Notes under the pieces: generated by a model
Told to the model about the DNA's origin: nothing
Databases searched by the model: none
Seen by the model: the letters and a program-made list of their open reading frames with translations, nothing else
In this document: positions 8,524-54,858 of the stretch, piece after piece
How positions within the stretch are numbered: position 1 is the stretch's first letter
Layout of the letters: every line of letters starts with the position of its first letter
Made by a program: the position numbers and the translations under genes
Origin: Patescibacteria group bacterium
Lineage (GTDB): Bacteria; Patescibacteriota; Minisyncoccia; UBA6257; JACRHW01
Length of the DNA stretch: 64,000 nucleotides
Assembly: GCA_028865725.1 (NCBI GenBank)
Contig: JAGWJP010000002.1
Location: 168,050-232,049, forward strand
Direction: 5' to 3'

Positions 8524-9099
8524 TTAATTCGTACGATAATCATTTGCCGCAAACACATGAGCCTCGGGAAGCGGCCAAAGCCGGAAACGAACCAACCCGA
8601 TAATATTGGCGGTAGGAACGGCTCCCCACGACCGAGAATCATAACTAAACTCTCTGTTGTCCCCCATAACAAAATACTGATCACTCTCTAATTTAAGAGT
8701 GAGATCCCCCTCTGTTTGTTCATGGGCAGGAAGATACGGTTCTCCGAGAGTGTGCGCCTTTCCTTGTGTATCAGTAACCGTCACCATGCCATCATGCACT
8801 TGTACGGTTTCTCCGGGAAGCCCGATAATACGTTTAATATAAAAGGTAGTATAATCTTTGGGAAATCGAAATACGATCACTTCACCACGCTCTGGTTTTC
8901 GAAATCGATACGCCAGCTCATCAATAATCAAATAATTTCCGCTCGTGAATGTGGGCTCCATACTCGATCCTTTTACCAAAAACGGCTGAGCAATGAAATA
9001 TCGTACCAAAAACACGGCAAGAAGCGATACCACCAACACTTCTGCAAGTTCTGCTACAAAAAGAAGAATTTGACGCATGATAAAAAAATTAAAATTCAA
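8524..9099 (-). CDS. lepB: Signal peptidase I
   Basis: N-terminal TM segment; GSSMEPTF (catalytic Ser box) and GDNREFSYDSRSWG (box E). Confidence 0.85.
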   Translation of the reverse strand: MNFNFFIMRQILLFVAELAEVLVVSLLAVFLVRYFIAQPFLVKGSSMEPTFTSGNYLIIDELAYRFRKPERGEVIVFRFPKDYTTFYIKRIIGLPGETVQVHDGMVTVTDTQGKAHTLGEPYLPAHEQTEGDLTLKLESDQYFVMGDNREFSYDSRSWGAVPTANIIGLVRFRLWPLPEAHVFAANDYRTN

Positions 9100-10637: not shown

Positions 10638-11114
10638 TTACTGCGTACGCATACAAAGGGCAAATACCGCGATACCAAATGCCACAGATACATTAAGCGA
10701 CTCCTTCTTCCCTCGCATAGGGATTTCGAGCATCATATCTGCGCGCATACGCACACTCTGCGATACGCCGCTCACCTCATTGCCCACAACAAGAGCACAC
10801 GGGCGTTGGGGATCGAGTGGCACATAATCAAACAACGAAATGCTCCTCTTCCCCTGCTCGAGGACGATCACGGAAATACCGTCCTTTTGAAGACGCGCGA
10901 CAAGACGCGCAATATTTGGTACATGCTCCCACGGCACAAACTCCTCTGCACCAAGTGAGACCTTGATAAATCGCGGATCAGGATTTTGAAAGCGATCGAC
11001 AGGAAGCGGTGTGATGCCGCAGCAATAGATTTTTTCTACCCCTGCGGCATCAGCCGTCCGAAAGATCGAACCTACATTATGAATACTGCGAATATTATCG
11101 AGAATAACGATCAT
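10638..11114 (-). CDS. trmL: SpoU-family RNA 2'-O-methyltransferase, TrmL-like
   Basis: 158 aa; MIVILDNIRSIHNVGSIFRTADAAGV SpoU/TrmH fold motifs; size matches TrmL. Confidence 0.65.
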   Translation of the reverse strand: MIVILDNIRSIHNVGSIFRTADAAGVEKIYCCGITPLPVDRFQNPDPRFIKVSLGAEEFVPWEHVPNIARLVARLQKDGISVIVLEQGKRSISLFDYVPLDPQRPCALVVGNEVSGVSQSVRMRADMMLEIPMRGKKESLNVSVAFGIAVFALCMRTQ

Positions 11115-14916: not shown

Positions 14917-16863
14917 TTATTCCGTTGCGCTTTTAGTGTTTTGCGGAAGCGGCGTTGTGCGTGGCGTAAAATCGGTATCGCTATCGGTATCGCTATCGGT
15001 ATCGCAGCTATTTCCTCCATTCTCTGCGTCCCCGACGGCGGCAACGCATGCGCCATCCACCACTGTGTTGCGTTCAAGCGATTGTCCTGCAGTACTTGTG
15101 CTCACTGAGAAGCCGTAGTTCATCTCATCAATTTCCGTACCGCCCGCATCACGCAGGAGAATTTTTTCATTCTCTCCGTTCGGAAGCGACGCGATGCGAT
15201 GAACATCTGCAGCAACATCATTAAAATTTGCGGCATCATAATTATTCAGCCCCACAAGGAAAAATCCATGTGCTGCAATGGCGGTAGTATCCGACGCGCT
15301 ACTGCCAAAACGTGCCAAAAGTTCAGTAGACGTCGCATCGGTCTTTAAAAGATTAAGAGACCAGCTCCCCATGTCCACATCACTCTCTGTGGGATTATAA
15401 AACTCCACAAACTCCTTCCCCGCGTCGCTCCCTACGGCATCAAATGCTATCTCGCTTATCACCACATGATCAGCCGGTATTATCAAGGAAGAGGATGAAG
15501 CACTCTGTTCCTCTGTCGAAGATGCAGCAAAGACCAAATCAGCTCCGGAAGACGTAGAAGAACTCCCACTTACCACGTCGCTTGATGTCGCACTATCAAT
15601 ATCTGGTGTAGAAGATGCGATGGCGTCCGTACTTGTTGCATCGATTGCATCGGTCGAGCTTGCTTCAGAAATCGTCTCGTCGGTTGATGTCGCATCAGCC
15701 TGCCCTGCAATAACTGAATCACTTTGCAGGGTCGAACTCGCCGTCGTATCAATATCAAGAGTAGAAGATGCATCGGCGGTATCATCAGTTGACGAGGCAA
15801 TCACCGCAATCCTCAGTGAGTTTTCCCGAGCCGGCGTCCCCCATACTCCACTCACCGGATCGGCATCATTGGTATACAATGCAAATGTATCATCATCCTT
15901 CAGCTCCATGCTCCCGCGATTCGGATTGCTCGCGATTGAGGGAAAATCCTGCATGGTATCCACCCCATCGACAAGCGTACAAGCCGCATCAAAAAGCTGT
16001 ATCGTCTCCGCACTGTTATTCAATGCTCCGGTATAGATCTTGTCTGCAGGTATGTTCGGTACGCTCATATCATCAGTCCGCTCTAGGAGATAATACCCAT
16101 TGCCAGAAATAGCATCGGCAGCACCGAACACAATCGTAATGTCGGATTTTCCGCCATGCGCAAGAAGTTGCCATCCCGTGAGCGATACGGAAGAAGAGCT
16201 TGTGTTTTTTAACTCTATCCACTCATCTGCAGTGCTCTTCGCCGTACCCATCCATGCAATTTCGTTGATACGAACAGCATGAGACGGTACCGTGGTAGTA
16301 GACGCCGTACAATGCACGATTACATCGTTATGTTGAATAATACCGCCCGCCAATACGTTCGCGGTATTGGAAACATTAGGAAACGACACAATTACGGAAG
16401 GGATCGTGTCTTCATTTTCTGGGGAACTCGAACCAGCACCGATCGCGAGTGCCGCAACAGGAGAGGTGGAAGAAGGAGCGCGAGTAATTGTTTCCTTAAA
16501 TGCGCCTCCCTCATACTCGCTAAATTCAGTGGGATTACTCTCTTCAAATGTAACGACAGCTGGCGCAGTAACGGCAGTCTGTACTTCTGATTTTGCTTCA
16601 GAAGATAGAGGCTCAGTACTAGTAGCACTCTCCCCTTCATTACTTACCACACTCAGTGCGGCGAGATTGTGGGAGGCGACGTGCAAAGAATGTTGAGCTA
16701 AAAAAATAAGCGCCATACATGCGCCAATTCCCAAAATTACAACCCAACTCTTAAATACTACGTTCATAATCACCAAAATAAAAAATGTAACGCGCGAGAT
16801 GAAATGCGCGACGCACAAGCCATGTGCGAAACGAACTGTATATACAATACAGTGAGTGAGCAC
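14917..16863 (-). CDS. Secreted or surface protein with two lamin-tail domains (LTD), S/T-rich linkers and a D-[TS] repeat tail
   Basis: Two LTD signatures: RINEIAWMGT..DEWIELKNTSSSSVSLTGWQL and VISEIAFDAVGSDAGKEFVEFYNPTESDVDMGSWSL. N-terminal hydrophobic anchor (possible start at 16767, MNVVFKSW...); C-terminal DTDSDTDSDTD. Confidence 0.7.
   Translation of the reverse strand: MLTHCIVYTVRFAHGLCVAHFISRVTFFILVIMNVVFKSWVVILGIGACMALIFLAQHSLHVASHNLAALSVVSNEGESATSTEPLSSEAKSEVQTAVTAPAVVTFEESNPTEFSEYEGGAFKETITRAPSSTSPVAALAIGAGSSSPENEDTIPSVIVSFPNVSNTANVLAGGIIQHNDVIVHCTASTTTVPSHAVRINEIAWMGTAKSTADEWIELKNTSSSSVSLTGWQLLAHGGKSDITIVFGAADAISGNGYYLLERTDDMSVPNIPADKIYTGALNNSAETIQLFDAACTLVDGVDTMQDFPSIASNPNRGSMELKDDDTFALYTNDADPVSGVWGTPARENSLRIAVIASSTDDTADASSTLDIDTTASSTLQSDSVIAGQADATSTDETISEASSTDAIDATSTDAIASSTPDIDSATSSDVVSGSSSTSSGADLVFAASSTEEQSASSSSLIIPADHVVISEIAFDAVGSDAGKEFVEFYNPTESDVDMGSWSLNLLKTDATSTELLARFGSSASDTTAIAAHGFFLVGLNNYDAANFNDVAADVHRIASLPNGENEKILLRDAGGTEIDEMNYGFSVSTSTAGQSLERNTVVDGACVAAVGDAENGGNSCDTDSDTDSDTDFTPRTTPLPQNTKSATE
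14975..15010. repeat. 12-nt tandem repeat (GATACCGATAGC-like, 3 copies) encoding the DTDS repeats
   Basis: atcggtatcgct repeated three times, seen directly in the sequence. Confidence 0.5.
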
Positions 16864-17044
16864 ATGCGTGGTGCAACAAAGCAGTTCGCTCGCGCGTTAC
16901 GTTTTTTCAGTTGCTTTTCTCATCACCCTGGGGTCGAAACATCTGGTTCCTCGACCAATACCATCTCCGATACATACCGGAGTATCGCCTACTAGGATTG
17001 TCTTCTTCATAGGATGAATAAGAACAAACGTATTCTAGTTAAAA

Positions 17045-18752
<1,708 letters not shown>

Positions 18753-29933: not shown

Positions 29934-31565
29934 TTACTTCTTCGTTCTTGATTTCGGCGTCACCCAGTAGCCCATATAATGCCCGAGCATCAGGCGCGTC
30001 TGCGCTTCGAGTGCGGGAATGCTCCCAAGCGTCACCGCCGTAAGCGGCGTGATAAACCATTGCAAAAACATCCACACGTACTTGAACTTGCCATAGTTCA
30101 CCGGCTTTGGCGGTAAGAGCCACATGCTCAAGACCGCCGATGTCACAAGCCCGAACATCGCGAGTGTCATAATGTCACGGGTGAGATACGGAAGATTGTA
30201 GGAGAGAAGGGTCACTCGAAAGCTCTTCGGGCCCACAAAGACAGGAAGCCACCCCAGCAAAAACATCATGATGCTATTCGTCGCCCATGACCAAAACCCA
30301 TCGACAAGCTGAAGCGTGTGAAAAAACTTATGTTTCCATGACAATCGCTTATTGCGCACCGCATTAAACACAAAATAAGGAAGATTCTCCACTCCGTACC
30401 CCCAGCGACGCTGCTGTTTATATTGATTCACAATCGTACCCCAGAACTTCGGCGCCACGTTTGCATCCATCGTGACAGGATAGTAGAGCGGGACCACTGT
30501 CCAATCGCCGTTAAAATGCAAGAAGAGCTGATAAAAAATGCGCGAATCCTCTGACACCATGTTCGTCTGCCAGCAACCGATTTCCACGAGCGGCTGAAAT
30601 GCCATCGAGTGTGAAGAAAACGTAATTAAGCGCTCGGGGCGTGCCTGTTGCGTCATCTGCCAAAATGTAGAACCAAAACTCAGAACGCGGGCAAACGCAG
30701 GCGCCTCCCAAATGTTATTCGTAAAAAGCGGGATAGGCTGAAAACTCGAACGAAGCGGCTTCTCCGCCGTAAGATAGTGGTAGGTGAGACAGTGAAAATA
30801 GCCTGGCATCACATGGGTGTCCACATCAAACACCGATACCACAATGCGCTCATAGGGAATGCCGAGGGGATCAATAACCTTGCGCTGCGCTTCACGCGCC
30901 GCCCATGTTTCGTTTGATCCCTTGCCCGGCATCTCTCCTTCGATATCCGCCGGATGATGACTAATGACAAAATGAGAAAACCGCACGCCGTAAGCCTCTT
31001 TGATGCGCTGTCCCACCTCACGCGCCGCCTCTCCTGCACGCTCCTCAAGCCCCAACACAATAATCATCTTCTCTTGCGGATACTTTGTCGCGAGAAGCGC
31101 CTCCATACTTTCTTGTACCACCTCGAACGGCTCGTTATACATGGGAAGGATCACCAAATGCCATATCTCACCCCACCGAGACACAGGAACCTTATACTGC
31201 GAAGGAGAAAGCGCATCCAGTTTCGCGTTCCAATCCGTGTTCATGTGTTCAAATGTCTTCCGGTATCCAACCCGCAAATGCACAGACATGTAAACCGTTT
31301 TCAGAAACCAATACACATCAAAAAAAATAATAAACACGGCGACAAAAAAAGGCACCACAAAACTCAAACCAATGAGCACGATGAGCGTGCTCCAACTCAA
31401 AAGTCCGGGTATTACTTCAAGCGTGCGATACCAAAAACGCTCGGAAGATCCGCGCGGAAGCTCTGATGCCCTCCCGATTTTGAGATAGTTTAACTGTGCC
31501 ATAACAATTGCTCTTGGTTTTACTATACAAAAATTATATCTGCAAGAAAAGAAAAAAGGCATCAT
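29934..31565 (-). CDS. Processive family-2 glycosyltransferase (cellulose/chitin-synthase-like), integral membrane
   Basis: VILPMYNE, DVDT (DxD) and QQRRW (QxxRW) motifs; multiple TM helices N- and C-terminal; probable start at 31502. Confidence 0.7.
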   Translation of the reverse strand: MMPFFFSCRYNFCIVKPRAIVMAQLNYLKIGRASELPRGSSERFWYRTLEVIPGLLSWSTLIVLIGLSFVVPFFVAVFIIFFDVYWFLKTVYMSVHLRVGYRKTFEHMNTDWNAKLDALSPSQYKVPVSRWGEIWHLVILPMYNEPFEVVQESMEALLATKYPQEKMIIVLGLEERAGEAAREVGQRIKEAYGVRFSHFVISHHPADIEGEMPGKGSNETWAAREAQRKVIDPLGIPYERIVVSVFDVDTHVMPGYFHCLTYHYLTAEKPLRSSFQPIPLFTNNIWEAPAFARVLSFGSTFWQMTQQARPERLITFSSHSMAFQPLVEIGCWQTNMVSEDSRIFYQLFLHFNGDWTVVPLYYPVTMDANVAPKFWGTIVNQYKQQRRWGYGVENLPYFVFNAVRNKRLSWKHKFFHTLQLVDGFWSWATNSIMMFLLGWLPVFVGPKSFRVTLLSYNLPYLTRDIMTLAMFGLVTSAVLSMWLLPPKPVNYGKFKYVWMFLQWFITPLTAVTLGSIPALEAQTRLMLGHYMGYWVTPKSRTKK

Positions 31566-31586: not shown

Positions 31587-32213
31587 CTACCTCCGAAACA
31601 CCTTTTCCTTCACTCCATCAGGAGTAACAAGGTGCACTCGTATCTGCCCGCCTGTAGTAATATTTACTTTTGAAATGGACTGCATAATAGTGTGCATTAG
31701 CGCAATTGCCTCTCCCTCAGTATAGATCTTTCCTGCGTGCATCATTAATGCGACACAGGCCGACTCTGCTCCTATCCCTATTCCTGCATACCTTTCTTTT
31801 GTTCGTGAAAACACAAGATTCTTATCGGAAAACTGATAAAGGAAACATTTGTGATTGCGGGGGTCACATCCCGCAAGAAAAAACTCGATCTCTTTGTGAG
31901 AATGCTTTTTCAAAAATTCGCATACTCGCCTGACCTTTTTCGCAACAGAAAGATTCTTTTCTCGCACCTGCTTCATTTCCTCTTCACAACTCTCTACCAC
32001 TTCAATAAGCAAGGAAAGGTTCCCGGATATACCCAAAACAAGATGGGGATCAAGCATAAATACCTTCCGGTAAGATTCCGTGGTAATTTTATCTCCGGCA
32101 TTGATACGCCCGTCACTCCCCACAATCACTACAGGTACTTCTTTGGTGCCTGTCTGAAGCGTGGCGAGAAACCCTACGATCGCAGTCACTATGCTCATCC
32201 TTTCTTTGTGCAA
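31587..32213 (-). CDS. HslV/proteasome beta-like Ntn-hydrolase
   Basis: (M)TAIVGF...VVIVGSDGR...KVFML...LGISGNLS resembles the HslV N-terminus. An in-frame GTG at 32189 preceded by AAGGA would put Thr directly after the initiator, as in HslV. Confidence 0.6.
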   Translation of the reverse strand: MHKERMSIVTAIVGFLATLQTGTKEVPVVIVGSDGRINAGDKITTESYRKVFMLDPHLVLGISGNLSLLIEVVESCEEEMKQVREKNLSVAKKVRRVCEFLKKHSHKEIEFFLAGCDPRNHKCFLYQFSDKNLVFSRTKERYAGIGIGAESACVALMMHAGKIYTEGEAIALMHTIMQSISKVNITTGGQIRVHLVTPDGVKEKVFRR

Positions 32214-32317: not shown

Positions 32318-33235
32318 TCAATCCCTTTCTTCCAATTCCAGTGCGTCCTGTTTCTGCGTATCATCTGCCGCGGCTTGTTTTTCCTTTTTCTTTTGCCTTT
32401 TCAATTTTCTTGCCGTCTTTTTTTCTTCTTCTTGCTGGCGCACGATTTCCGCAAGCGTTTCCTTCAACCCCGCGCGCAACATGTGCCATGGCCCATGCGT
32501 GCGGGCCGCAACCTCGGCATAGCGTTTCTCAAGCACCGCGTCGCGATCCAGTTGTACAATCTCAAGATAAATTTCATTTCCATACTTTTTTGCACACGCC
32601 GCGCCAAACCGAAGCATCAATTCAATGCTATTAACACGGGATAACGTGTGAAGATACTCTTCAAAACTCTCAAGCTGTGCACCGATCCACAACGACTCCC
32701 GAGGCGTACTCGCTTTTTCTGTTTTTCTGCTCCGCGATGGCGCCTTTGTTTCGGTGCGCACCAGCGGGCCGCTTATAAATCCGGAGGCGGGAATCGAAAT
32801 ACCAGTATGCGGCACCACCACGACCTCATCAGTAGATGGATCGCCCGTGATACGCACGAATACCATCGCCGCATCAATCTCCGGCCGCTTCGGATCTTTC
32901 AGGTGTGATGCAAGCAAGGATCCAATCTTTTCTCCCACGCCCAACGCATGGACATTTTCATATGATACCTCGAGTGCCTCACCTTTCGCGATCGCTGAAG
33001 CCGCTCTCTGCAGCTCGAACCCATCAGAGCCAAAACTAATCACAAAAATGCGATCCAGCACGCGCTTGATGCGTTGGCGATAATCATCGGAACATGCAAG
33101 CATCAAAATGCTTCCACCAAGATTCAATACTACGGCGGGATAGCTTTCCCGCACATCTCTTGCAGCGCGCCGCCTCTTTGCGTGCACGATATCTGTAAGC
33201 TTACGACACATGGAACGACACCTCCTGAGGCCCAA
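32318..33235 (-). CDS. Proteasome-like subunit lacking N-terminal Thr (alpha-like or inactive beta-like), with a charged C-terminal tail
   Basis: PAVVLNLGGSILMLACSDD and RPEIDAAMVFVRITGDPSTDEVVVV resemble the proteasome core-fold blocks (RP-x-G...G-x-D....DPSG); no Thr1; Lys/Glu-rich tail of about 50 aa; overlaps the upstream beta gene. Confidence 0.45.
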   Translation of the reverse strand: MGLRRCRSMCRKLTDIVHAKRRRAARDVRESYPAVVLNLGGSILMLACSDDYRQRIKRVLDRIFVISFGSDGFELQRAASAIAKGEALEVSYENVHALGVGEKIGSLLASHLKDPKRPEIDAAMVFVRITGDPSTDEVVVVPHTGISIPASGFISGPLVRTETKAPSRSRKTEKASTPRESLWIGAQLESFEEYLHTLSRVNSIELMLRFGAACAKKYGNEIYLEIVQLDRDAVLEKRYAEVAARTHGPWHMLRAGLKETLAEIVRQQEEEKKTARKLKRQKKKEKQAAADDTQKQDALELEERD

Positions 33236-33977
33236 GCGAGCTCATAATATAAGCGTGGCACGTTCCTCCGGATCCGGAATCAAACCGAAATGCCATATGA
33301 AAGAGGCGGGCCAAGCGCTGGTAAAGTTCTTTTAGGGTATAGTCTCTGCCTGCTTCTACCGCAAGAAGAGCTTCGATCGCTGAATAACCGCTTCCGGTAC
33401 CCCCGCAATCCCCCACATCGTGGATGTAGCCTCCTGGATAAAACTCAAAAATACGACACCGGCCCTTGTCTTCGTTGTCCTGTCCCTCATAGCCCGCGAG
33501 AAGAAAGTATATGGGAAGAAAAGGTACCTGTCTCATCATATTTTGAAGCATCGTGACCTTGCCGCGTAGGGAGAGCTTCTGGTCTGGTGTATCCGCCATA
33601 TCATCATAGTGAGCTACACTAAGACTATAGATCTTTCCCATCCGGTCTAGGGCAGATGCGAGACCAGCTCCACCAAGCACAAGGGTGCTATCAATCATAC
33701 GCATTTTTTTCGCTTCTTCCTCAACAATATGATGCCCTGCGGATGTTCTTCCATCAGATGCAATCACGACTGCGGGGAGCGTAATCATTGCGTCTTCCTT
33801 GCCTTCAGGATTGAGTTCCGTTTCCGGGACTTTCAATCCAAAACGCATCGCGATCACCGTCGTTCCTGTGGTAACCTGCCTCTGGTACAGACCATCGCCA
33901 GACGTCCGTGGCATGGCACGCACGGATTCTCCAAGCGCGGTAAGTGCTCGCTCGAAAAGATTTTCGACCAATGACAT
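33201..33977 (-). CDS. Proteasome beta subunit-like Ntn-hydrolase with N-terminal propeptide
   Basis: ...QVTTG|TTVIAMRFG (Gly-Thr processing site), AVVIASDGRTSAG (Asp17 region), EEEAKKMRMI (Lys33 region), GGTGSGYSAIEALLA and SGSGG blocks all align to archaeal/actinobacterial beta subunits. Confidence 0.7.
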   Translation of the reverse strand: MSLVENLFERALTALGESVRAMPRTSGDGLYQRQVTTGTTVIAMRFGLKVPETELNPEGKEDAMITLPAVVIASDGRTSAGHHIVEEEAKKMRMIDSTLVLGGAGLASALDRMGKIYSLSVAHYDDMADTPDQKLSLRGKVTMLQNMMRQVPFLPIYFLLAGYEGQDNEDKGRCRIFEFYPGGYIHDVGDCGGTGSGYSAIEALLAVEAGRDYTLKELYQRLARLFHMAFRFDSGSGGTCHAYIMSSLGPQEVSFHVS

Positions 33978-36514: not shown

Positions 36515-36664
36515 AGACAAAACTTTTCGCAACAACACCAATTTTTTGTACACCTCATGCAACGCATGGAGGTAGTTTGATGTAGTATATTGGATTTGAA
36601 AAATCAAAAAGACGCTAAAGAATTTGAAAAAACGAGTGAAATCCCCTATGATAAACGCATCATG

Positions 36665-36752
36665 CGCCGCCGTGGTGGAATTGGTAGACACGACAGACTT
36701 AAGATCTGTTGCCCTCCAAGGCGTGTCGGTTCGAGTCCGACCGGCGGTACCA
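36665..36752 (+). tRNA. tRNA-Leu (anticodon TAA), CCA encoded
   Basis: Acceptor GCCGCCG/CGGCGGT; anticodon arm ACAGA-CTTAAGA-TCTGT; long variable arm; T arm GTCGG-TTCGAGT-CCGAC; ends ACCA. Confidence 0.85.
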
Positions 36753-36769
36753 AGTTAAATCTCACTCTT

Positions 36770-37618
36770 ATGGAATTCTTAAGGAGCATTTTTAACGGGC
36801 CGATACAAAAACCAAAAGAACCAACCACGGAAGAAGCAAAAAAGATTGAATCTACTCGAAGAGATTCACCAGAAGAAACAAAAGCTCTTCGTGAAGAAAC
36901 ACAAGCAGAAACGTTATTGCGCTTACGAGATAAAATAAGCCTACGTAAATTTAAAGGAGGTGGTGCAAATGCAACCTTTGCGGTAACGCTCAAAGATGAT
37001 GGCTTAGGAATCTTTAAACCAAAAAGTGGGGAAAACAAAAACCTTCGTGACAACGTACAAGCAGGTACCTACTTCAAACGTGCGCGTGCCGCATATCTTG
37101 TGGATAAGTGTTTGGGATTTGGGATTGTTCCCCCTGTCTCTATTCGAGAAATTGATGGCGAAATTGGTAGTATTCAACAATTCATTGAGAATGCATCGAC
37201 CTATACAGAACTCTCCTTTGCTGATCGCGGTGAACTACGTTCCACGCATTATGATCAACTCATAGCATTGTGGCTTTTTGACATTATTATTTTCAACTCC
37301 GACCGAAGCCCCAGAAACCTCCTCGTTTCGAAAAATGGCATTCATGCGATCGACAATGATTTAAGTTTTGGAAATGATTCCTTACGCCATCAAATCGGAT
37401 ACTATTATAATGCAAAAATTCCATCTCATCTTATTCAAAAATTAGAACGTTTTACTTCTTCTGAAACCCGAAAACAAAGCTTAAGAGCTCTCCTTCTCGA
37501 ACTCCTTCCTGAAAAAGAAGTCAATGCATGTATATCCCGCATTGAACGCGTCGCGCGCCTTGTGCAAGCGGGAACTATTACGAAACAATTGAAAGATATC
37601 TTAACCCAATATGAGTAA
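36770..37618 (+). CDS. Atypical protein-kinase-like (PKL-fold) protein
   Basis: Gly-rich loop GGGANATFAV, GIFKPK (VAIK-like Lys), catalytic-loop-like FNSDRSPRNLLV (D-x4-N as in HRDLKPEN), IDNDLSFG (DFG-like). The track ORF start overlaps tRNA-Leu; the Met at 36770 is the likely start. Confidence 0.5.
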   Translation: MEFLRSIFNGPIQKPKEPTTEEAKKIESTRRDSPEETKALREETQAETLLRLRDKISLRKFKGGGANATFAVTLKDDGLGIFKPKSGENKNLRDNVQAGTYFKRARAAYLVDKCLGFGIVPPVSIREIDGEIGSIQQFIENASTYTELSFADRGELRSTHYDQLIALWLFDIIIFNSDRSPRNLLVSKNGIHAIDNDLSFGNDSLRHQIGYYYNAKIPSHLIQKLERFTSSETRKQSLRALLLELLPEKEVNACISRIERVARLVQAGTITKQLKDILTQYE

Positions 37619-46325: not shown

Positions 46326-46569
46326 CGTACCACTCGCCACTAGGGTTTAGGGTTTCGGATCTTGGAATGAGAGAATCTAGAAAATAGAAAATAGTATTCA
46401 AGCGCAGTCGAGAACCTTCCTTTTCATATCTTATATGCTTGTTTAATGACGTAATCTTTTATGCTGGATACAAGATACGAGATGCGATATAATAAAAACA
46501 TACTATTTACTACGTCATAAGAAGCAGTATCCGCTGCAGAGCACGCACTGCTGTTTCTCTCACCGTTCT

Positions 46570-47913
46570 ATGCAAACTGCATCGCTTACACAACAGCAAA
46601 AAGCAATCCTCGGGATCGGAGGTGTTCTCATTCTCATTCTTGTATTGGGGTTCACAGGGATTATTCCTGGACTGAGAAAAAAACCCAGCGCGACCCGACA
46701 GATTTCTTCTCTTACGGTATGGGGGGTAGGAGATGATAAATCAGTATTTGATTCAATCTTCCCCGGATTCGGAGTCTCTATCACCTACGTCAAAAAGGAT
46801 TACGCGACCTACGAACAAGATCTCATTACCGCACTTGCGGCAGGAGAAGGACCCGACGTATTTATGATTCACGATGCATGGCTCCCTAAATACCAAAACC
46901 TGGTTACGCCCGCGCCCGCAGATCTCATTACTCCGCTCACGGTACAAAAACAATTTCCCGACGTAGTCTCGCAAGATTTTATACGCAATGGGAATATTTA
47001 TGCGCTTCCATTGTCGATCGACACGCTCGCCCTTTTTTATGACAAGGATATCTTTAACGGCTCGTTTGTGAGCGCTCCTCCCCGCACATGGGGACAGCTT
47101 GAGACGCTTGCAACCCGTCTTACGAAGCGCGACGCGACGGGTGCCATTACCCAGTCAGGCATTGCCCTGGGAGGATCTGCAACCAACGTCGATAAAGCCG
47201 CGGATATTTTGAGTATGTTGATGATCCAGAACGGATCAAAAATGAGCGATGGGGCAAGCTACACCTCGGCACTCGATACGCCACTTACAATAGGAGGAGG
47301 ACAGCCTGGCGTTGACGCATTAAAATTCTATCTCCAGTTCGCAGACCCTCACTCTTCGTTCTTTACGTGGGACACCTCGCAGCACTATTCGATTGATGCC
47401 TTCTCCTATAATCCTTCGGTGAATAACAAGGTGGCAATGATGATCAACTACCATTATCAAATTCCTACGCTTCTTGCCAAAAATCCCAACCTAAACTTTG
47501 GTGTTGCCACGCTCCCCCAGCAAGATTCAGCGACAGAAGCTCAATACGCCACCTATCCCGATTATTGGGGCTATGCGGTTTCAAAAGCAAGTAAAGACCC
47601 CGCGCTTGCGTGGAAATTTGTACTCTACCTTACGGCATACAATCAGGCGAAAACATATTTACAAAACACACACAACCCCCCCGCATTGCGTGCGTTGATT
47701 CAAAATGATCAAAACGATCCTATTCTCTCTGTGTTTGCCAACCAAATCTTGATTGCAAAATCATGGGTGCGCCCGGGACATGAGACGACAAATTCCGTGC
47801 TCTCAAATGCCATAAGCAGTGTGCAACAAGGCCTCCTGTCCCCCGACGAAGCGATTTCCGCCGCAAACCAACAGCTCAATGCCCTTTTTAACGCCATCCC
47901 TAACAAACAATAA
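46570..47913 (+). CDS. ABC transporter solute-binding protein (family 1, sugar-type), apparently orphan
   Basis: N-terminal TM/signal anchor; typical SBP_bac_1 architecture (about 420 aa periplasmic domain). No permease or ATPase genes adjacent. Confidence 0.65.
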   Translation: MQTASLTQQQKAILGIGGVLILILVLGFTGIIPGLRKKPSATRQISSLTVWGVGDDKSVFDSIFPGFGVSITYVKKDYATYEQDLITALAAGEGPDVFMIHDAWLPKYQNLVTPAPADLITPLTVQKQFPDVVSQDFIRNGNIYALPLSIDTLALFYDKDIFNGSFVSAPPRTWGQLETLATRLTKRDATGAITQSGIALGGSATNVDKAADILSMLMIQNGSKMSDGASYTSALDTPLTIGGGQPGVDALKFYLQFADPHSSFFTWDTSQHYSIDAFSYNPSVNNKVAMMINYHYQIPTLLAKNPNLNFGVATLPQQDSATEAQYATYPDYWGYAVSKASKDPALAWKFVLYLTAYNQAKTYLQNTHNPPALRALIQNDQNDPILSVFANQILIAKSWVRPGHETTNSVLSNAISSVQQGLLSPDEAISAANQQLNALFNAIPNKQ

Positions 47914-47920
47914 TACCCCC

Positions 47921-48247
47921 ATGAAACACACTGTGCGTATTGTAGGCCTCTCATCCTTCTTGCTCCTCTTCCCGCTGCTTGCATTAGCCGATCAGTTTAC
48001 AGGATTTCAAAATCCGCTTTCCTCAAATAGCGTCTTTGATATCATTAACAATGTCACCGCCTTCTTGCAGCCCTTCGCTGCTGCGGTCGTCGTGATTATG
48101 ATTTTAGTCGGCGCATTCCAGATTCTCACCGGAAACCCTTCTCAAATAACCACAGGGAGAAAAACAATTCTGTGGGCCGTGATCGGATTTGCTATCATTT
48201 TCCTGACACCGATTATTATCGGAGCCATCCAGGAATTTTTTAAGTAG
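47921..48247 (+). CDS. TrbC/VirB2-like small secreted two-TM protein, copy 1
   Basis: Signal peptide + hydrophobic helix + short polar loop (TGNPSQITTGRK) + second hydrophobic helix (ILWAVIGFAIIFL); paralogous to the next three ORFs. Confidence 0.5.
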   Translation: MKHTVRIVGLSSFLLLFPLLALADQFTGFQNPLSSNSVFDIINNVTAFLQPFAAAVVVIMILVGAFQILTGNPSQITTGRKTILWAVIGFAIIFLTPIIIGAIQEFFK

Positions 48248-48330
48248 CGTTTTGTTCTGTTTGAGACCGCGCCGCCTCTGCTATCCCCTTGTACCGAAAA
48301 TCAAAACCGTTATAATAAAAGTGAACACGT

Positions 48331-48666
48331 ATGAAGACACCACGCGCACGAACACTTACCTTCTGGTTTACGCTCGCCTCGTTTTTCGGAGCCCTTCCTG
48401 CGTTTGCTGACTTGGGTCCGAATCAACAAAAGATTATTGATCTCGTCTACTCGGTCGCGGATTTCATGGGCGGGCTTTTTCTTGCCGTGTCCGTGTGCAT
48501 GTTTCTCTATACAGGGTATCTCTATTTTACCGCGCAGGGAGACCCCGGAAAGATCACCAAGGTCAATCAGGCCCTCCTCTGGGCTGTAGTAGGCACTGGA
48601 ATAGGGCTTCTCGCGTTTGTGATGCCGCAAGTTATCAATACATTTTTAAGCAACGCGACTCAATAA
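48331..48666 (+). CDS. TrbC/VirB2-like small secreted two-TM protein, copy 2
   Basis: Signal peptide; Y-x-TA-x-GDP-x-K-I...ALLWAVVGTGIGLLAFVMPQVI-x-x-FL conserved with copies 3 and 4. Confidence 0.5.
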   Translation: MKTPRARTLTFWFTLASFFGALPAFADLGPNQQKIIDLVYSVADFMGGLFLAVSVCMFLYTGYLYFTAQGDPGKITKVNQALLWAVVGTGIGLLAFVMPQVINTFLSNATQ

Positions 48667-48735
48667 ACTTAGCATTTCGATAGAATGGTAACGAAAAGGT
48701 CGATGATTATCTATATTTAACTTCACTCAATCACA

Positions 48736-49095
48736 ATGAAAAAAACAATTATAAGCCTTGCTGCACTAACCCTCGGATCACTCCCCATGCTCGCAGCCGC
48801 GCAAGCACAAGGTCCAAGCGCGGGCGGTGGAAACTATGTAACACAAATTGGTAGCCCAAGAACAGTTCTTCAAAATGTTACCAATACCATTGCCTCTCTT
48901 TTCCTCTTTGCTTCCGTTATCTATCTTGTGCTTGCCGGATTTCAATACCTTACCGCAGGAGGAGATAGTGAAAAGATGGGCAAAGCAAAAACAAACTTTA
49001 CCTATTCCATTATTGGTATTGCCATAGGTCTTCTTGCTTATGCGCTTCCGGGTCTTATCAGCAGCTTTCTTCAAGGTAGTGGAACACTCCAATAA
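48736..49095 (+). CDS. TrbC/VirB2-like small secreted two-TM protein, copy 3
   Basis: Signal peptide (cleavage after AAAQAQG); same conserved block (YLTAGGDSEKMGKAKTNFTYSIIGIAIGLLAYALPGLI). Confidence 0.5.
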   Translation: MKKTIISLAALTLGSLPMLAAAQAQGPSAGGGNYVTQIGSPRTVLQNVTNTIASLFLFASVIYLVLAGFQYLTAGGDSEKMGKAKTNFTYSIIGIAIGLLAYALPGLISSFLQGSGTLQ

Positions 49096-49190
49096 TACAA
49101 AAGAACTGCCTCAGACTTACACAAACCCCTCAATCAGGGGTTTGTTGGTTTTTTGTATTCTTCTCTGGTATACTTAAGGAAAATCCTATC

Positions 49191-49532
49191 ATGAAATACG
49201 TCAAAACATTTTTGTGCTATGCATTCTACGCAGCCCCGTTATTTGCAAACGCTGCCTCTATCCCTACTCAATTTGTCCAAACAGCTCCCATCCCCATCCT
49301 ATTTGTCCAATCCATTCTCGATTTTATTGCCTCCTTGTTCCTGTTTGGATCAGTAATTTATCTGCTTTATGCAGGATATCTCTTTTTTATTGCAGAAGGA
49401 GATCCCAAAAAAATAGACACCGCAAAAAACAATCTGAGGTGGAGCATCATAGGAATCGGCGTCGGCCTTCTTGCGTATGTATTGCCTCAGGTAATCAAAA
49501 CATTTCTCGATTCTTCCGGATTAGTACGGTAA
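49191..49532 (+). CDS. TrbC/VirB2-like small secreted two-TM protein, copy 4
   Basis: Signal peptide; FIAEGDPKKIDTAKNNLRWSIIGIGVGLLAYVLPQVIKTFL conserved block. Confidence 0.5.
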   Translation: MKYVKTFLCYAFYAAPLFANAASIPTQFVQTAPIPILFVQSILDFIASLFLFGSVIYLLYAGYLFFIAEGDPKKIDTAKNNLRWSIIGIGVGLLAYVLPQVIKTFLDSSGLVR

Positions 49533-49542
49533 CCATGAGAAG

Positions 49543-50109
49543 CTAGGAAAAGAGAGCCTGATGAGGCTCGCCTTTTTTATAGATAAAAAGTTTTTCAAAT
49601 CGTTCTTCAGCAGGATACGTTACTATCGTTTCAATCGGTTCCCAGTATGGAAAAAAACTAGTGTTAGTAATTATAACTGCCCCGGCTTTTAGCTCTTCAC
49701 GTAATTTTTTTTCAAGTTCAGGCATAAGTTCCTTCAAAAGATATGCGTACACCACATCCGCCTCAGAAAGATTGATAGCGAAAAAATCCCCACGCATAAA
49801 CACTGTGGGCGATTGATGTACCCACCCTCTTATTTTTGCAAGAATGATCCTTATTCTATGATTATCAATTCCATATACTCTAAGATGCGGGATCCTTTTC
49901 TGAAGACTCATAGCAAAAAACCCACGTGCGCAACCTAAATCATAACATATGGCCCCAAAAGGGGCGTGTGCCTGAATAATGTCAAAAATCTTCTCGCACG
50001 CACGAGTACTCGTCGCAAGATCATTGCTTCCTAGTATTGTATCCGTAAGAAACAAAAAATAGCCCACCAATACACCCACAAGAATGATAAGCATTAAAAG
50101 TTCAAGCAT
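49543..50109 (-). CDS. Class I SAM-dependent methyltransferase with N-terminal TM anchor
   Basis: Motif I ICYDLGCARGFFAMSL (DxGxGxG-like); overlaps the upstream ATP-grasp gene by 8 nt. Confidence 0.6.
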   Translation of the reverse strand: MLELLMLIILVGVLVGYFLFLTDTILGSNDLATSTRACEKIFDIIQAHAPFGAICYDLGCARGFFAMSLQKRIPHLRVYGIDNHRIRIILAKIRGWVHQSPTVFMRGDFFAINLSEADVVYAYLLKELMPELEKKLREELKAGAVIITNTSFFPYWEPIETIVTYPAEERFEKLFIYKKGEPHQALFS

Positions 50110-51292
50110 AATATTTAAGTGCCATTTTTAAAATTGCGCCTGCAATATTTTGAGGTTGTCCGCGATAAGGGTAATGATGCATATCAATATAGGGAAGGCT
50201 GTTCAACTCAATAATAGCGCATACCTGATCTTTCCAAGAACGTGCTACCGATTCTCCTATGAAATCAATTCCCACAATAGTCATACCAAAAAGATTTGCT
50301 ACATTTTTAAACAACTCTATATTGTCCGGATGTAACGAGTGGGTTAATTCAATGATGTCCGCCCCAAGATCTAATATTACCTTTTTTTGAAGCACTACTA
50401 TTTCTCCCGCACTCGGAACCGATGAATACCTCATTCCTTGTTCCTTAAGAAGCTCATCGCTCGTGGCATCTAATATAATATGGTAATGAGTTGTATTTTT
50501 GTGTGGGGATTTTTTTCTTCGCGAATCGGCGTTTTTTATTGCCACAAGTTCCTGAACAGTATTGATGCCATCCCCCACCACATGTGCAGGTATACGTTCG
50601 ACACATGCAACAAAATCTCCATCTATTACTGTCGCACGAAACACATGCATATTGGGTAAGTATTGCTCCACAATTACACAGGGCTCATAACGCAATGCGC
50701 GTTCAATTCCATCTTCCAATTGTTGTTCAGAAGTAATATGAGTAGTAATGTGATGACTAATCGATCCACTGCGAGGTTTCACCATAAGAGGAAACCCTAA
50801 AGAAAGGCCATAGCGAAACGCTTGTTTCTTCTGAAAAAACCAAAAATTCTTTCCCTCGGGAGTAATGATGTTCTGTTGGGCAAGAATCTTTTTAACTGCA
50901 GCCTTATCATCAACAAGAGAACTATATTTTGAACTCGATAGTTCTGTGCATGGCAATCCCTCAAACCATACTGACCTCTTACCTATTCGCATAACAAATT
51001 CATTTGTGTATCCAAACGGAGTACGTGTCGCAGCACACGTGATCCCTTGTTTTCTTGCCTCATCAATAAACACAGTGGTGCGCAATGATATATCGTCATA
51101 AGAAAAATCATTCTCAAGACGCAAAATTCCTACCATTTTGAATAGCACCCGTATCGGAGCAAAAAACGTATATACGAATTTATTTCTCAGTTTTGGCAGA
51201 CAATATTCAATGAAACTATCGATATACTTTTCATAATGATTCACAGGAAGAGGACCGCAATCCTTACAATATTTCGACTTTAGGCGTATCAT
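50102..51292 (-). CDS. ATP-grasp superfamily ligase (RimK / cyanophycin-synthetase-like)
   Basis: FPLMVKPRSGSISHHIT (ATP-grasp central domain) and C-terminal IIELNSLP (Mg/ATP-binding E-x-N). The track ORF extends to 51418 over a tRNA fragment; the Met at 51292 is more plausible. Confidence 0.55.
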   Translation of the reverse strand: MIRLKSKYCKDCGPLPVNHYEKYIDSFIEYCLPKLRNKFVYTFFAPIRVLFKMVGILRLENDFSYDDISLRTTVFIDEARKQGITCAATRTPFGYTNEFVMRIGKRSVWFEGLPCTELSSSKYSSLVDDKAAVKKILAQQNIITPEGKNFWFFQKKQAFRYGLSLGFPLMVKPRSGSISHHITTHITSEQQLEDGIERALRYEPCVIVEQYLPNMHVFRATVIDGDFVACVERIPAHVVGDGINTVQELVAIKNADSRRKKSPHKNTTHYHIILDATSDELLKEQGMRYSSVPSAGEIVVLQKKVILDLGADIIELTHSLHPDNIELFKNVANLFGMTIVGIDFIGESVARSWKDQVCAIIELNSLPYIDMHHYPYRGQPQNIAGAILKMALKYYA

Positions 51293-51666: not shown

Positions 51667-52770
51667 ATGCCAGAAGAGGAGAAGCAATTGTTTAATGCGC
51701 TTGCCATTGCGACCGACAATGATTATTTTTTAATGCGCGCGCTCCATATGCGTTATGGCACCTATACGCAGGCATATCAATCTCTCATTACAAAAACAAT
51801 CGATCAGACTGATCTTGATGAAAAAACAAATGCCAAACTACACGAGACTGAAAAAGCTCTCCGCACACTTAATCCAGGCAAAGAATATGCGACTCTTATC
51901 AACCATAATATTACATTGCTCTTGCGAGAAGAAAGCGATCTCTACCCCCCACACCTTACCACACTCCCCCAACCTCCTCTTGGACTCTATCTTCAGGGCG
52001 ATATCACAGCATTCACGCGCAATACTGCTACACTCGGAATCGTAGGAACACGCACGCACTCCTCCTACGGCAAAGTGGCATGTGAACGAATCGTTCCGAC
52101 CCTCGCACGCTATCCCATCACCATCATAAGCGGTCTTGCGCTCGGTATCGATACGCTCGCACACGCCCTCACCCTCGCACACGGCGGCACTACCATCGCA
52201 GTCATAGGAAATGGATTCTCCTCATGGTATCCACATCAAAATAAGGAACTTGCGCATACTATTATAAAAAAGGGAGGCGCGGTTATCTCGGAATATCACT
52301 TTGCTACCCCTCCTCACAAATTCAATTTTCCACGAAGAAATAGAATCGTCGCAGGTCTTACTCAAGCAATATTAGTCATCGAAGCTCCTGAAAAAAGCGG
52401 ATCGCTCATTACCGCGCGGTATGCTCTTGAACTCAATAAAGATGTCCTCGCGATCCCAGGCGCAATCAATAGCCGCAATGCACAAGGCACAAATGCGCTT
52501 ATCAAAGACGGGGCGCTTGTCATCACATCACCCGAAGATATTCTCCAGTATTTTAATCTTACCGCCCTGCACGACCTACACGCTTACGAACTCACTCATC
52601 AAGAGGAAGAAATCCTTGCATTGCTTGACAAAAACAATGGAACCATGCAAACTGACTCCTTGTTGGCACAATGTGCACCGGAAGAGGCAGCCCAGACGAC
52701 TGCTCTTCTTACTGAAATGGAACTTAAAGACTATATCGAAATCTGGGGTACCCATATTATTAAAAAATAG
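51667..52770 (+). CDS. dprA: DNA processing protein A (DprA/Smf)
   Basis: GIVGTRTHSSYG...ISGLALGIDTLAHALTLAHGGTTIAVIGNGFSSWYP Rossmann-like DprA core. Confidence 0.85.
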   Translation: MPEEEKQLFNALAIATDNDYFLMRALHMRYGTYTQAYQSLITKTIDQTDLDEKTNAKLHETEKALRTLNPGKEYATLINHNITLLLREESDLYPPHLTTLPQPPLGLYLQGDITAFTRNTATLGIVGTRTHSSYGKVACERIVPTLARYPITIISGLALGIDTLAHALTLAHGGTTIAVIGNGFSSWYPHQNKELAHTIIKKGGAVISEYHFATPPHKFNFPRRNRIVAGLTQAILVIEAPEKSGSLITARYALELNKDVLAIPGAINSRNAQGTNALIKDGALVITSPEDILQYFNLTALHDLHAYELTHQEEEILALLDKNNGTMQTDSLLAQCAPEEAAQTTALLTEMELKDYIEIWGTHIIKK

Positions 52771-52788
52771 AAACCACGTATCGCATCT

Positions 52789-54858
52789 ATGAAATTAGTT
52801 ATTGTAGAGTCTCCTACGAAAGCAAAAACCATTACTGGTTTTTTAGGCAAGGACTACGATATCGAATCGTCTTATGGTCATGTACGCGACCTTCCCAAAA
52901 GCGCGATCGGTATTGATATAGAACATAATTTCGAACCGAAGTATGTCATTCCGAGGAAGGCTGCTCCTCAAGTAAAAAAACTAAGAGCACTCGCAAAAAA
53001 AGCAGATGAAATCATTCTTGCCACTGATGAAGATCGAGAGGGAGAAGCTATTGCGTGGCATCTTTCAAAAGCGCTCGGCCTCGAGGGAGAGAGCCCCAAT
53101 GCATCAAAAAAAGTAGAGCGTATCGTATTTCATGAAATTACCAAAACCGCAATTAACGAGGCGCTGACCCATCCGCGCTCCGTCAATCTTGATGTGGTAA
53201 ACGCACAACAGGCGCGAAGAATCCTTGATCGTTTGGTAGGATACAAACTCTCGCCTTTTTTATGGAAAAAAATAAGCAAGGGGCTCTCCGCAGGACGCGT
53301 ACAGTCTGTCGCATTAAAACTAGTGGTAGACCGCGAAAAAGAAATAGAAGCATTTACGGCTGAAGAATATTGGACAATAAGCGCACTTCTCAAAAAAGGA
53401 TCGGACGAATTTTCAGCGGAACTTTCTAAAAAAGACGGGATGGTACTCGACAAACGAGCGATCCCTACAAAAAAAGAGGCACAAGAAATAGAGAGCGATC
53501 TACAACACGCCTCCTATACCGTCTCGGATGCACTCCATAAAGAGACATTCCGCCAACCCCCTGTCCCGTTTATTACCAGCACACTTCAACAGGAATCTTC
53601 AAAAAAACTACACCTGTCTGCTAAACAAACCATGATGCTTGCCCAGCAACTCTATGAAGGCGTTGACTTGGGCGGCGGACAAGTGGGCCTTATCACGTAC
53701 ATGCGTACCGACTCCACGAACATCGCTGAAGAGGCGCTCCACGCAACGAAACAATTTATTCACACCACGTACGGTGCCGAGTATGCTCTCGAAGCCCCAC
53801 GACGCTTTAAAAGCAAATCAAAACTTGCCCAAGAAGCCCATGAAGCAATCCGGCCTACCGATGTCACACGCACTCCAGAACTTGTAGCAAATTACCTCAC
53901 GCCTCAGCAACGCAAACTCTACCACCTTATCTGGGCACGTTTCGTGGCATCACAAATGCCACGTGCAAAATTTAGCCTCACTTCCATACAAATCACCGCG
54001 CAAAATTCTCATGACTATACGTTCAAAACAAACGGAAGCTCAATGCTCTTCGATGGCTTTTTAAAAGCGTGGCCTATCAAATATGAAGAGCGTCTCCTTC
54101 CCTCTCTTCTCGAACAAGACTCTCTTTCACTTATTAAAATCGATTCTTCACAACACTTCACTGAACCCCCCCCACGCTTTAACGAAGCAAGCCTTATCAA
54201 AATCCTCGAGGAAAATGGTGTAGGGCGCCCCGCAACCTACGCATCTACCCTCTCTGTTCTTGAGGAACGCAACTATGTGGACAAGAACGAAGATAGGCGA
54301 TTCCGTCCTACTGAGATAGGAAGAATGGTAAGTGATCTTTTAAGCGAGCACTTCCCGGAAATTGTAGATATTGGGTTTACTGCAAAAATGGAGGATGACT
54401 TGGATGGTGTTGCAGAAGGCAATACAAAGTGGGTGGAACTTCTCCGAGAATTTTACACGCCGTTTTCTGCTCATTTGGAACAAAAATACACGGAAGTAAA
54501 AAGTCAAAAAGTAGTTGAGGAAACAGACGAGATCTGCGATAAGTGCGGCAAAAAGATGTGGATCCGTCGAAGTCGATTTGGGAGATTTCTTGGTTGCTCT
54601 GGTTTTCCGGAATGTAAAAACACTCGTCCCTTGCCTGCTTCGTTAAGCACGACCGAAGAAAAAGGTGATCTTCCTGAATTGCCCTGTCCCACGTGTCACG
54701 AAGGAAAGATCGTGATGCGAAGAACAAAAAAACGAAGAATCTTCTACGGATGCTCACGCTATCCTGATTGTAATTACGCGACATGGACGAGACCGACTAC
54801 GCCAGCAGAGAATACGCCGGAAACCGTAAAAGAAGAGCAACGCGGAGAAGAGAAATAA
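52789..54858 (+). CDS. topA: DNA topoisomerase I with C-terminal zinc-ribbon repeats
   Basis: N-terminal TOPRIM LVIVESPTKAKTI; catalytic Tyr region; two C4 zinc ribbons (CDKCGKK...C, CPTCHEG...C). Confidence 0.9.
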   Translation: MKLVIVESPTKAKTITGFLGKDYDIESSYGHVRDLPKSAIGIDIEHNFEPKYVIPRKAAPQVKKLRALAKKADEIILATDEDREGEAIAWHLSKALGLEGESPNASKKVERIVFHEITKTAINEALTHPRSVNLDVVNAQQARRILDRLVGYKLSPFLWKKISKGLSAGRVQSVALKLVVDREKEIEAFTAEEYWTISALLKKGSDEFSAELSKKDGMVLDKRAIPTKKEAQEIESDLQHASYTVSDALHKETFRQPPVPFITSTLQQESSKKLHLSAKQTMMLAQQLYEGVDLGGGQVGLITYMRTDSTNIAEEALHATKQFIHTTYGAEYALEAPRRFKSKSKLAQEAHEAIRPTDVTRTPELVANYLTPQQRKLYHLIWARFVASQMPRAKFSLTSIQITAQNSHDYTFKTNGSSMLFDGFLKAWPIKYEERLLPSLLEQDSLSLIKIDSSQHFTEPPPRFNEASLIKILEENGVGRPATYASTLSVLEERNYVDKNEDRRFRPTEIGRMVSDLLSEHFPEIVDIGFTAKMEDDLDGVAEGNTKWVELLREFYTPFSAHLEQKYTEVKSQKVVEETDEICDKCGKKMWIRRSRFGRFLGCSGFPECKNTRPLPASLSTTEEKGDLPELPCPTCHEGKIVMRRTKKRRIFYGCSRYPDCNYATWTRPTTPAENTPETVKEEQRGEEK

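Follow-up and report, generated by a model that had tools for sequence, protein, structure and literature searches.

The genes considered here are four small open reading frames (ORFs) arranged in tandem behind a gene for a solute-binding protein (SBP) in the chromosome of a Patescibacteria group bacterium. They lie in a stretch of 64,000 nucleotides (contig JAGWJP010000002.1, positions 168,050 to 232,049 of the forward strand), referred to below as the window and numbered from its first letter. A preliminary description, made from the letters of the window, had correctly traced the DNA to the candidate phyla radiation, that is, to Patescibacteria, and had reported four consecutive plus-strand ORFs of 108-119 amino acids (aa), each with a Sec-type signal peptide, two hydrophobic helices around a charged loop and a P-x-x-I-x-x-F ending. 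The encoded proteins are on record in GCA_028868355.1 (contig JAGWUQ010000003.1, 162 kb), a metagenome-assembled genome labelled "Patescibacteria group bacterium". We found the four ORFs at exactly the positions it gave (Table 1), and the architecture was confirmed copy by copy.

Architecture of the four proteins

At the N-terminus of all four copies, a basic n-region and a hydrophobic h-region precede an AxA-type site for signal peptidase I, with cleavage predicted from hydropathy and the -3,-1 rule at ALA↓D, AFA↓D, AQA↓Q and ANA↓A in copies 1-4. In each mature protein, two strongly hydrophobic stretches surround a short charged loop (GNPSQITT, GDPGKITK, GDSEKMGK and GDPKKIDT, in the same order), and the C-terminus ends in P-x-x-I-x-x-F(L/F). 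The AlphaFold2 models of copy 3 consist of a signal helix (residues 2-22), a disordered linker (23-40) and a helical hairpin (41-73 and 78-114), with a predicted local distance difference test score of 71.6 overall and 80.7 over the mature region. Inspection of the four leaders revealed neither G↓FTLIE nor any G↓FxxxE class III prepilin signal; the leaders are class I. The other copies are 23-31% identical to copy 1, and a profile built from all four found no further match among the window ORFs of at least 40 aa, the next best having E = 1. Since the proteins score above the gathering threshold of a Pfam family (see below), their profile is specific within the window and each has a positional orthologue in another species, the four ORFs are, judged by their sequences, genuine genes and not chance ORFs.

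Table 1. Positions of the SBP-pilin module, of candidate signals around it and of other window features
Feature	Position	Strand	Remarks
SBP gene, membrane-anchored, sugar-type	46570..47913	+	447 aa; N-terminal transmembrane (TM) helix; first gene of the module
Pilin paralogue 1	47921..48247	+	108 aa; ATG nested in a longer GTG ORF; starts 7 nt past the SBP stop
Pilin paralogue 2	48331..48666	+	111 aa; AFA↓D site and hairpin
Pilin paralogue 3	48736..49095	+	119 aa; AQA↓Q site
Pilin paralogue 4	49191..49532	+	113 aa; AAGGA Shine-Dalgarno-like motif upstream
Promoter-like site TGGATA-17-TATAAT	46465..46493	+	about 75 nt before the SBP start; 10/12 consensus positions, best in the region; consensus match only
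Terminator-like hairpin	49121..49155	+	10-bp stem and T-run; between paralogues 3 and 4; consensus match only
Bidirectional terminator-like hairpin	49554..49579	both	between the array and the convergent methyltransferase-like gene; consensus match only
TM-anchored protein-lysine-methyltransferase-like gene	49543-50109	-	convergent on the array
ATP-grasp protein gene	50102-51292	-	396 aa; ATP-grasp half of cyanophycin synthetase only (6e-62), well below the family cut-off
DprA and topoisomerase I genes	51667-54858	+	just 3' of the array
Peptidase_S26 (signal peptidase) gene	8524-9099		Pfam match
Acidic protein	11114-12604	-	496 aa; no family, no TM segment, no P-loop
Ser/Thr/Asp-rich protein	14917-16863	-	648 aa; N-terminal TM segment; two lamin-tail domains (PF00932, 7e-27)
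Complete 16S rRNA gene	17041-18752	-	1,712 nt
Family-less protein	29934-31565	-	543 aa; two TM regions; faint glycosyltransferase-2-like matches (CelA/PgaC)
Proteasome-subunit-like gene	31587-32213	-	PF00227
Family-less protein	32318-33235	-	305 aa
Proteasome-subunit-like gene	33201-33977	-	PF00227
ORF with PI3/PI4-kinase catalytic-domain match	36590-37618	+	weak match (4e-7, 30.6 bits)
tRNA-Leu(taa) gene	36666-36752		overlapped by the preceding ORF as listed from its TTG start

Family assignment

All four proteins almost certainly belong to PF18895 (T4SS_pilin), the family of pilin-like proteins belonging to type IV secretion systems (T4SS). They score 45.6, 30.4, 41.4 and 35.1 bits in copies 1-4 (E = 7e-12, 4e-7, 1.5e-10 and 1.4e-8), in every case above the gathering threshold of 26.6, and each has the form expected of a member, a small signal-peptide protein with a two-helix hairpin. 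The family is very large, as 49,485 of 1.84 billion cluster representatives matched the four-copy profile at E <= 1e-3; when 70 homologues were collected, every one of them matched PF18895. The earlier assignment of the array to the T4SS-pilin type rather than to the type IV prepilins is thus borne out, PF18895 being found in all four copies and the G↓FTLIE signal in none.

In NCBIfam the best match of all four copies is NF045849, the pilin-like proteins Mbov_0395 and ICE_MMCAP2_0565 of integrative and conjugative elements (ICEs) of Mycoplasma. These also come from monoderm, wall-less or reduced organisms with a T4SS of the mating-pair formation FATA (MPF-FATA) type. They differ from the present case in that the window proteins score 23-35 bits (34.6 for copy 4; E from 1e-8 to 5e-5) under a cut-off of 40 and in that the window offers no ICE context.

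A solute-binding protein gene heads the array

The protein encoded 7 nt ahead of the first pilin gene matches SBP_bac_1 (6.7e-24) and SBP_bac_8 (6.9e-21), and its nearest solved relatives are sugar or oligosaccharide binders of the MalE type (4r9f, MBP1, 4e-25). The preliminary description had rightly placed an SBP gene directly upstream of the array but had treated it as an orphan neighbour. It is instead the conserved first gene of a module, as seen in 79 of 80 species. Looked up from the pilin side, seven of nine arrays have an SBP gene and two have none; the order of SBP followed by pilins recurs in L004, L008, L011 (a complete Kaiserbacteria genome), L012, L096 and L097.

The same arrangement was found from the SBP side. 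The query was an alignment of six SBP orthologues, 27-57% identical to the window SBP and each with an N-terminal TM anchor; a scan of one genome per species yielded 585 relatives, and the module counts given here rest on the best 80 loci. The SBP orthologues of these loci share only 33-60% identity (top match 60%), and their genomes carry the labels Yanofsky-, Wolfe-, Portnoy-, Lipton-, Harrison-, Andersen- and Doudnabacteria, Paceibacterota and others. When the pilin hidden Markov model was run on all six-frame ORFs of the 80 loci, pilin-domain ORFs were found directly 3' of the SBP gene and on the same strand in 79, the exception being a contig of 3.6 kb. Nearly all pilin matches (320/323) fall within 6.5 kb downstream of the SBP gene, and neither the 573 kb of upstream sequence nor the opposite strand contains any. 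From the SBP stop to the first pilin ORF the median distance is 7 nt, as it is in the window; it is at most 50 nt in 64 of 79 loci, and 4-nt overlaps are common. Arrays that are not cut by contig ends contain 3-8 pilin-domain ORFs (median 5). The gyrA gene lies upstream in 64/80 loci, and eight loci with enough upstream sequence lack gyrA yet keep the SBP-pilin pair. The ATP-grasp, methyltransferase, DprA and TopA genes were considered as further members of the module and rejected, since their conservation does not extend past the closest relatives.

The module does not have the layout of a canonical ABC-importer operon, in which the SBP gene stands beside permease and ATPase genes. No ABC permease (BPD_transp_1) or ATPase (ABC_tran) gene accompanies the SBP in the window, and none was seen within 10 kb in any of the seven module loci that were annotated with Pfam.

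The linkage of the SBP gene to the pilins is what goes beyond the preliminary description. A limited literature search found no description of it, and the parts of the main text and supplements of the main survey (PMC12102498) that were available to us mention no such partner.

Candidate transcription signals around the module are listed in Table 1. Promoter-like sites as a whole are no more numerous than in shuffled sequence, and each site listed is to be read as a consensus match. Inside the array no Rfam RNA element was found; a sub-threshold match to cow-rumen-3 lies at 49549-49680. Together, the signals tentatively suggest one transcript over the SBP gene and pilins 1-3, with pilin 4 transcribed partly separately.

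Several relatives encode longer forms of the pilin domain. Single ORFs of three to four tandem pilin hairpins without internal signal peptides occur in L074 (11609-12760), L035 (12154-13260), L092 (12663-13493) and the proteins P0076-P0080, where they repeat the loop SAGDE-x-RA-x-x-AKK, and the library of representatives holds proteins of 500-820 aa with 6-8 pilin hairpin stretches; these concatemers are covalent. In many species the first gene past the SBP encodes a long protein (about 280-1200 aa) in which a Gly-rich linker joins an N-terminal pilin module to a large extension at the C-terminus, as in L008 (8590-9489), L012 (8467-9438), L093 (9196-12828), L053 (11292-14069) and L033 (11233-13062). 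Some other array members have the reverse order, with the extension at the N-terminus and the pilin module at the C-terminus. Such extended proteins could carry pilin-anchored adhesin or enzyme domains. The window array is made up of short pilins only.

Age of the paralogues

Since synonymous sites are saturated at protein identities of 23-31%, positional orthology was used for the four paralogues in place of the ratio of nonsynonymous to synonymous substitution. Compared with the corresponding locus of another species (L004), paralogues 1-4 are 46%, 50%, 51% and 47% identical to the pilin at the same position, whereas identities between different positions are 25-43%. Each pilin is thus closest to its same-position counterpart, from which it follows that the four paralogues predate the split of the two species and have been individually retained. 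This retention position by position argues for distinct roles, and against a recent amplification or a cassette-type antigenic variation, as far as sequence comparison can tell. Between the same two genomes GyrA is 84% and the SBP 57% identical; by this measure the pilins evolve faster than their housekeeping neighbour. The proposal in the preliminary description that such arrays are diversified pilus subunits for host interaction agrees with suggestions in the literature (PMC12102498, PMC12857230), but the pilins here are long-standing paralogues that keep their positions, and not the product of a recent diversification.

Relation to type IV secretion systems and to published arrays

Members of the same family do occur with secretion genes elsewhere. 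In L014, a six-gene array lies beside VirB4-like (P-loop_TraG/AAA_10), TraC-like and PrgI (VirB3-like) genes, and in L098 a VirD4-like gene is found 8 kb from a five-gene array. In the Saccharibacterium Southlakia epibionticum, an essential pilin series lies inside the T4SS cluster (PMC10633639; PMC12857230). In addition, VirB4 is present in five of six genomes with the SBP-pilin module that were looked up in Table S1 of PMC12102498.

Arrays of this kind have been surveyed before. In the survey by Quinonero-Coronel et al. (2025), for which 3,035 Patescibacteria genomes were screened using PF04956 and PF18895, VirB2-like pilins were present in 1,948 VirB4-containing assemblies and lay near virB4 in only 1,135, and 441 VirB2-like arrays of 2-11 genes had a mean within-array identity of 25% and a maximum of 54% (PMC12102498). 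An array is defined there as two or more PF04956/PF18895 genes of Patescibacteria in tandem or one gene apart; the window has four in direct succession, and their divergence (23-31% to copy 1) compares with the published mean of 25%. The locus is a further example of this published kind, and the novelty ascribed to it in the preliminary description was overestimated, as such arrays, including ones far from virB4, have already been catalogued (PMC12102498). It resembles the published arrays, among them those of S. epibionticum ML1 (Wang et al. 2023, PMC10633639) and the "Sec secreted array" of TM7x, in its tandem small PF18895/PF04956 genes, in the combination of Sec signal and hairpin, in gene number and within-array identity, and in being chromosomal and, as is often the case, not next to virB4. 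It differs in that the Saccharibacteria array sits inside the T4SS cluster, whereas in the window, as in no fewer than 79 other species, the array follows a sugar-type SBP gene, far from T4SS genes. In Paceibacteria that parasitize methanogens, T4SS pilins are among the five most expressed function-unknown genes with a signal peptide (PMC10936435).

Neighbouring genes and other features of the window

The window is core chromosome. Its genes encode FtsZ/FtsA, HisRS, signal peptidase I, RecG, the CCA-adding enzyme and proteasome-like subunits, and further MurD-like, S1, GyrA, DprA, TopA, RelA/SpoT, ParB, ThyA and DHFR proteins; RNA genes comprise six tRNAs and one 16S rRNA. The 16S rRNA gene is about 180 nt longer than the 1,533-position model, and no 23S rRNA gene was detected in the window; the rRNA genes appear to be unlinked.

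Downstream of the array, the methyltransferase-like and ATP-grasp genes, both convergent on it, overlap by 8 nt. The ATP-grasp gene is found near the array only in the closest relatives (L005/L006) and the methyltransferase-like gene in a few more loci. The adjacency of DprA and topoisomerase I to the array is likewise kept only in L005/L006 and is probably not a functional linkage.

Elsewhere in the window, two proteasome-subunit-like genes (1e-12 and 3e-11) flank the gene for the 305-aa protein. The real start of the ORF with the kinase-domain match must lie further downstream than the listed one, since the ORF as listed overlaps a tRNA-Leu gene. The lamin-tail protein is probably a surface protein, and the proteins of 496 aa and 543 aa are the largest family-less ones in the window.

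Discussion

Based on the conserved gene order and the family of the pilins, we propose a composite in which the SBP and the divergent pilin module act together, with the pilins forming a VirB4-dependent pilus and the SBP cooperating with this surface structure; we hold this with slightly better than even confidence. The VirB4-dependent pilus, considered by itself, we judge somewhat probable. In this reading the module consists of the gene for a membrane-anchored, sugar-type SBP followed by old, divergent pilin genes of the VirB2/TrbC superfamily, probably on one transcript. The starting point is seen in the sequences, where every pilin has an AxA-type Sec signal peptide ahead of a hydrophobic two-helix hairpin. 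From there, the pilins would be inserted by Sec/YidC and cleaved by signal peptidase I, for which the Peptidase_S26 gene of the window is a candidate, to form a pool in the membrane with the charged loop on the cytoplasmic side. By homology with other lineages, a T4SS of the VirB4/VirB3(PrgI)/TrsD/VirB6 type encoded elsewhere in the genome would then extract the pilins and polymerise them, giving a pilus or conduit where the bacterium touches its host cell. Since each paralogue keeps its own positional orthologue across species, the paralogues may have non-redundant roles, for instance as major and minor subunits or for alternative host surfaces. The SBP, in turn, may work with this structure at the surface, either as an adhesin or receptor for glycans or in the capture of solutes, and it would not be part of a local ABC importer.

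Several results weigh against this proposal. Only copy 1 matches TrbC/VirB2 (PF04956), at 24.6 bits and E = 2.9e-5 under a gathering threshold of 27.9. The TrbC search set out in the preliminary description thus showed similarity for one copy but brought no copy to the gathering score, and by score the proteins are not members of TrbC/VirB2 proper; their relation to VirB2 is one of remote similarity plus genomic evidence. An alignment of the pilin profile to a single VirB2 sequence of A. tumefaciens (checked at 99.2% identity against annotated plasmids, and one sequence rather than a broad VirB2 alignment) was not significant in hhalign (E = 0.24). Foldseek with the copy 3 model returned ATP synthase subunit c as its best match (E = 0.46) and no pilin in the top 50, and a 70-member pilin profile gave only chance-level matches (E >= 0.1) to all chains in the PDB; in such searches against solved structures, by fold or by sequence, this fold is too simple to discriminate. 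As the preliminary description had stated, the window holds no VirB4, VirB6 or VirD4 homolog. None of these families was found by Pfam in the 47 main window ORFs of at least 150 aa, which include all those of at least 400 aa (the remaining ones overlap longer ORFs), and among the unannotated ORFs of the window there is neither a large Walker-A ATPase nor a polytopic protein resembling VirB6. T4SS genes were also missing from the 8 kb to the left, so that the search in the source organism covered about 72 kb. Homologues of the VirB4-like, TraC-like and PrgI proteins of L014 were not found within 10 kb in the 80 module loci by jackhmmer, at its limited sensitivity, nor in any other retrieved locus except L014 itself; neither the window, nor the 8 kb to its left, nor these 80 loci thus encode the pilins together with VirB3/VirB4/VirB6-type genes. 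One module-bearing draft genome (L020, GW2011_GWB1_42_6) is listed without VirB4 (PMC12102498). Finally, pilus formation by the module members is a prediction from the genes, and the role of the SBP is drawn from gene order.

Some of these points would be explained if the hairpins worked independently of a T4SS, forming a membrane oligomer (a ring or channel) that acts with the SBP in non-canonical solute uptake or anchoring, without any extruded pilus. The module always stands apart from T4SS genes in these lineages, the annotated module loci have no local ABC permease near the SBP, the draft genome just mentioned has no VirB4, and the best fold match, while not significant, is to subunit c. 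In related loci and in the library of representatives, 2-8 hairpins are also found joined covalently in one protein that has no internal signal peptide. Hairpin concatemers are known for ring-forming proteins such as the V-ATPase c subunits, but they are compatible with filaments too. We nevertheless regard such an oligomer as unlikely, given the PF18895 assignment with its sub-threshold TrbC similarity, the cleavable signal peptide on every short copy, which is typical of pilins, the VirB4 found in five of the six module genomes checked, and the members of the same family that sit within T4SS clusters elsewhere (L014; PMC10633639).

A second alternative is that the gene order is inherited synteny, the SBP serving a distant ABC importer and the pilins acting separately with a T4SS, with no functional coupling between the two. 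The frequent presence of gyrA upstream shows that the neighbourhood is generally stable, and the link is one of gene order rather than of experiment. Yet the pair persists in the eight loci without gyrA and beside unrelated downstream genes, and it stays intact where a methyltransferase gene or a long pilin-domain gene has been inserted around it. The operon-like gaps, with their 7-nt median and many 4-nt overlaps, and the spread of the species over Paceibacteria, Andersenbacteria and Doudnabacteria-labelled genomes at 33-60% SBP identity also speak against mere inheritance. We therefore consider uncoupled synteny improbable, and a functional link between SBP and pilins fairly likely.

That the proteins are holins, bacteriocins, immunity proteins or generic small membrane proteins, as their small size, their two TM helices and weak sub-threshold matches to CbtA, DUF456 and function-unknown PHROGs families might suggest, is very improbable in view of the specific PF18895 matches above cut-off, the housekeeping context (FtsZ, GyrA, TopA, 16S rRNA) free of phage or toxin genes, and the absence of any holin or bacteriocin family from the Pfam, NCBIfam and PHROGs searches, the last of which gave only function-unknown families, all at E >= 0.005. 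The preliminary description had named such a match as grounds against its pilin assignment, and none was found for the four proteins.

Comparison with known systems places the proposed SBP-pilin apparatus among several partial likenesses. With the TrbC/VirB2/TraA pilins (PF04956) the window proteins share a long Sec signal, two helices with a charged loop, about 70-90 mature residues and a weak but repeated profile similarity, seen in copy 1 and in 15 of the 70 homologues (E <= 0.01, best 3.2e-7). Those, however, are pilins of diderm T4SSs with one major pilin, while the organism of the window is a monoderm whose array consists of several old paralogues that are not encoded with VirB3-B11; nothing in the window pilins, known from their genes, indicates cyclisation, acetylation or a lipid-bound filament. 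In the Bas bindosome of Sulfolobus, sugar-binding proteins are assembled at the cell surface with the small pilin-like BasABC proteins, and both the pilin-like proteins and the SBPs have class III signals and depend on an ATPase of the type IV pilus type. The likeness, which we offer as an analogy, would lie in sugar-type binding proteins tied to several small pilin-like membrane proteins. In contrast, the small proteins of the window are T4SS-type with class I signals, and the six-orthologue alignment of the window-type SBP shows a plain N-terminal TM anchor and no conserved class III motif. PrgZ and TraC are permease-less binding proteins on enterococcal conjugative plasmids, PrgZ being an OppA-type peptide binder (SBP_bac_5) in pheromone sensing. 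They likewise present an SBP without its own permease that is encoded with a monoderm T4SS-related system, PrgZ being of the peptide type and the window SBP of the sugar type (SBP_bac_1).

The literature acknowledges that the function of the T4SS and of its pilin arrays in Patescibacteria, including what they transport, has yet to be settled, although epibiotic growth requires them in the single species in which this was tested (PMC11665869, PMC12857230). Taken alone, the present locus is one more array, and the comparative result on the SBP is the more useful one. That 79 or more species place a carbohydrate-type SBP gene first in such arrays almost without exception, at operon-like distances and with no ABC permease nearby, provides a testable handle on the role of the pilins, one that could separate a role in adhesion or nutrient capture from a role in export. 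A wider reading, which we put forward only tentatively and think rather unlikely as it stands, is that of a phylum-wide surface apparatus in which an anchored sugar-binding protein is coupled to a heteromeric T4SS-type pilin assembly. In such an apparatus the SBP may be displayed on the pilus or fed by it, or the structure may be bindosome- or channel-like, and it may even operate without VirB4. If true, the apparatus would tie the essential T4SS pilus of these bacteria to host-glycan recognition or nutrient capture, and not to the export of DNA or effectors.

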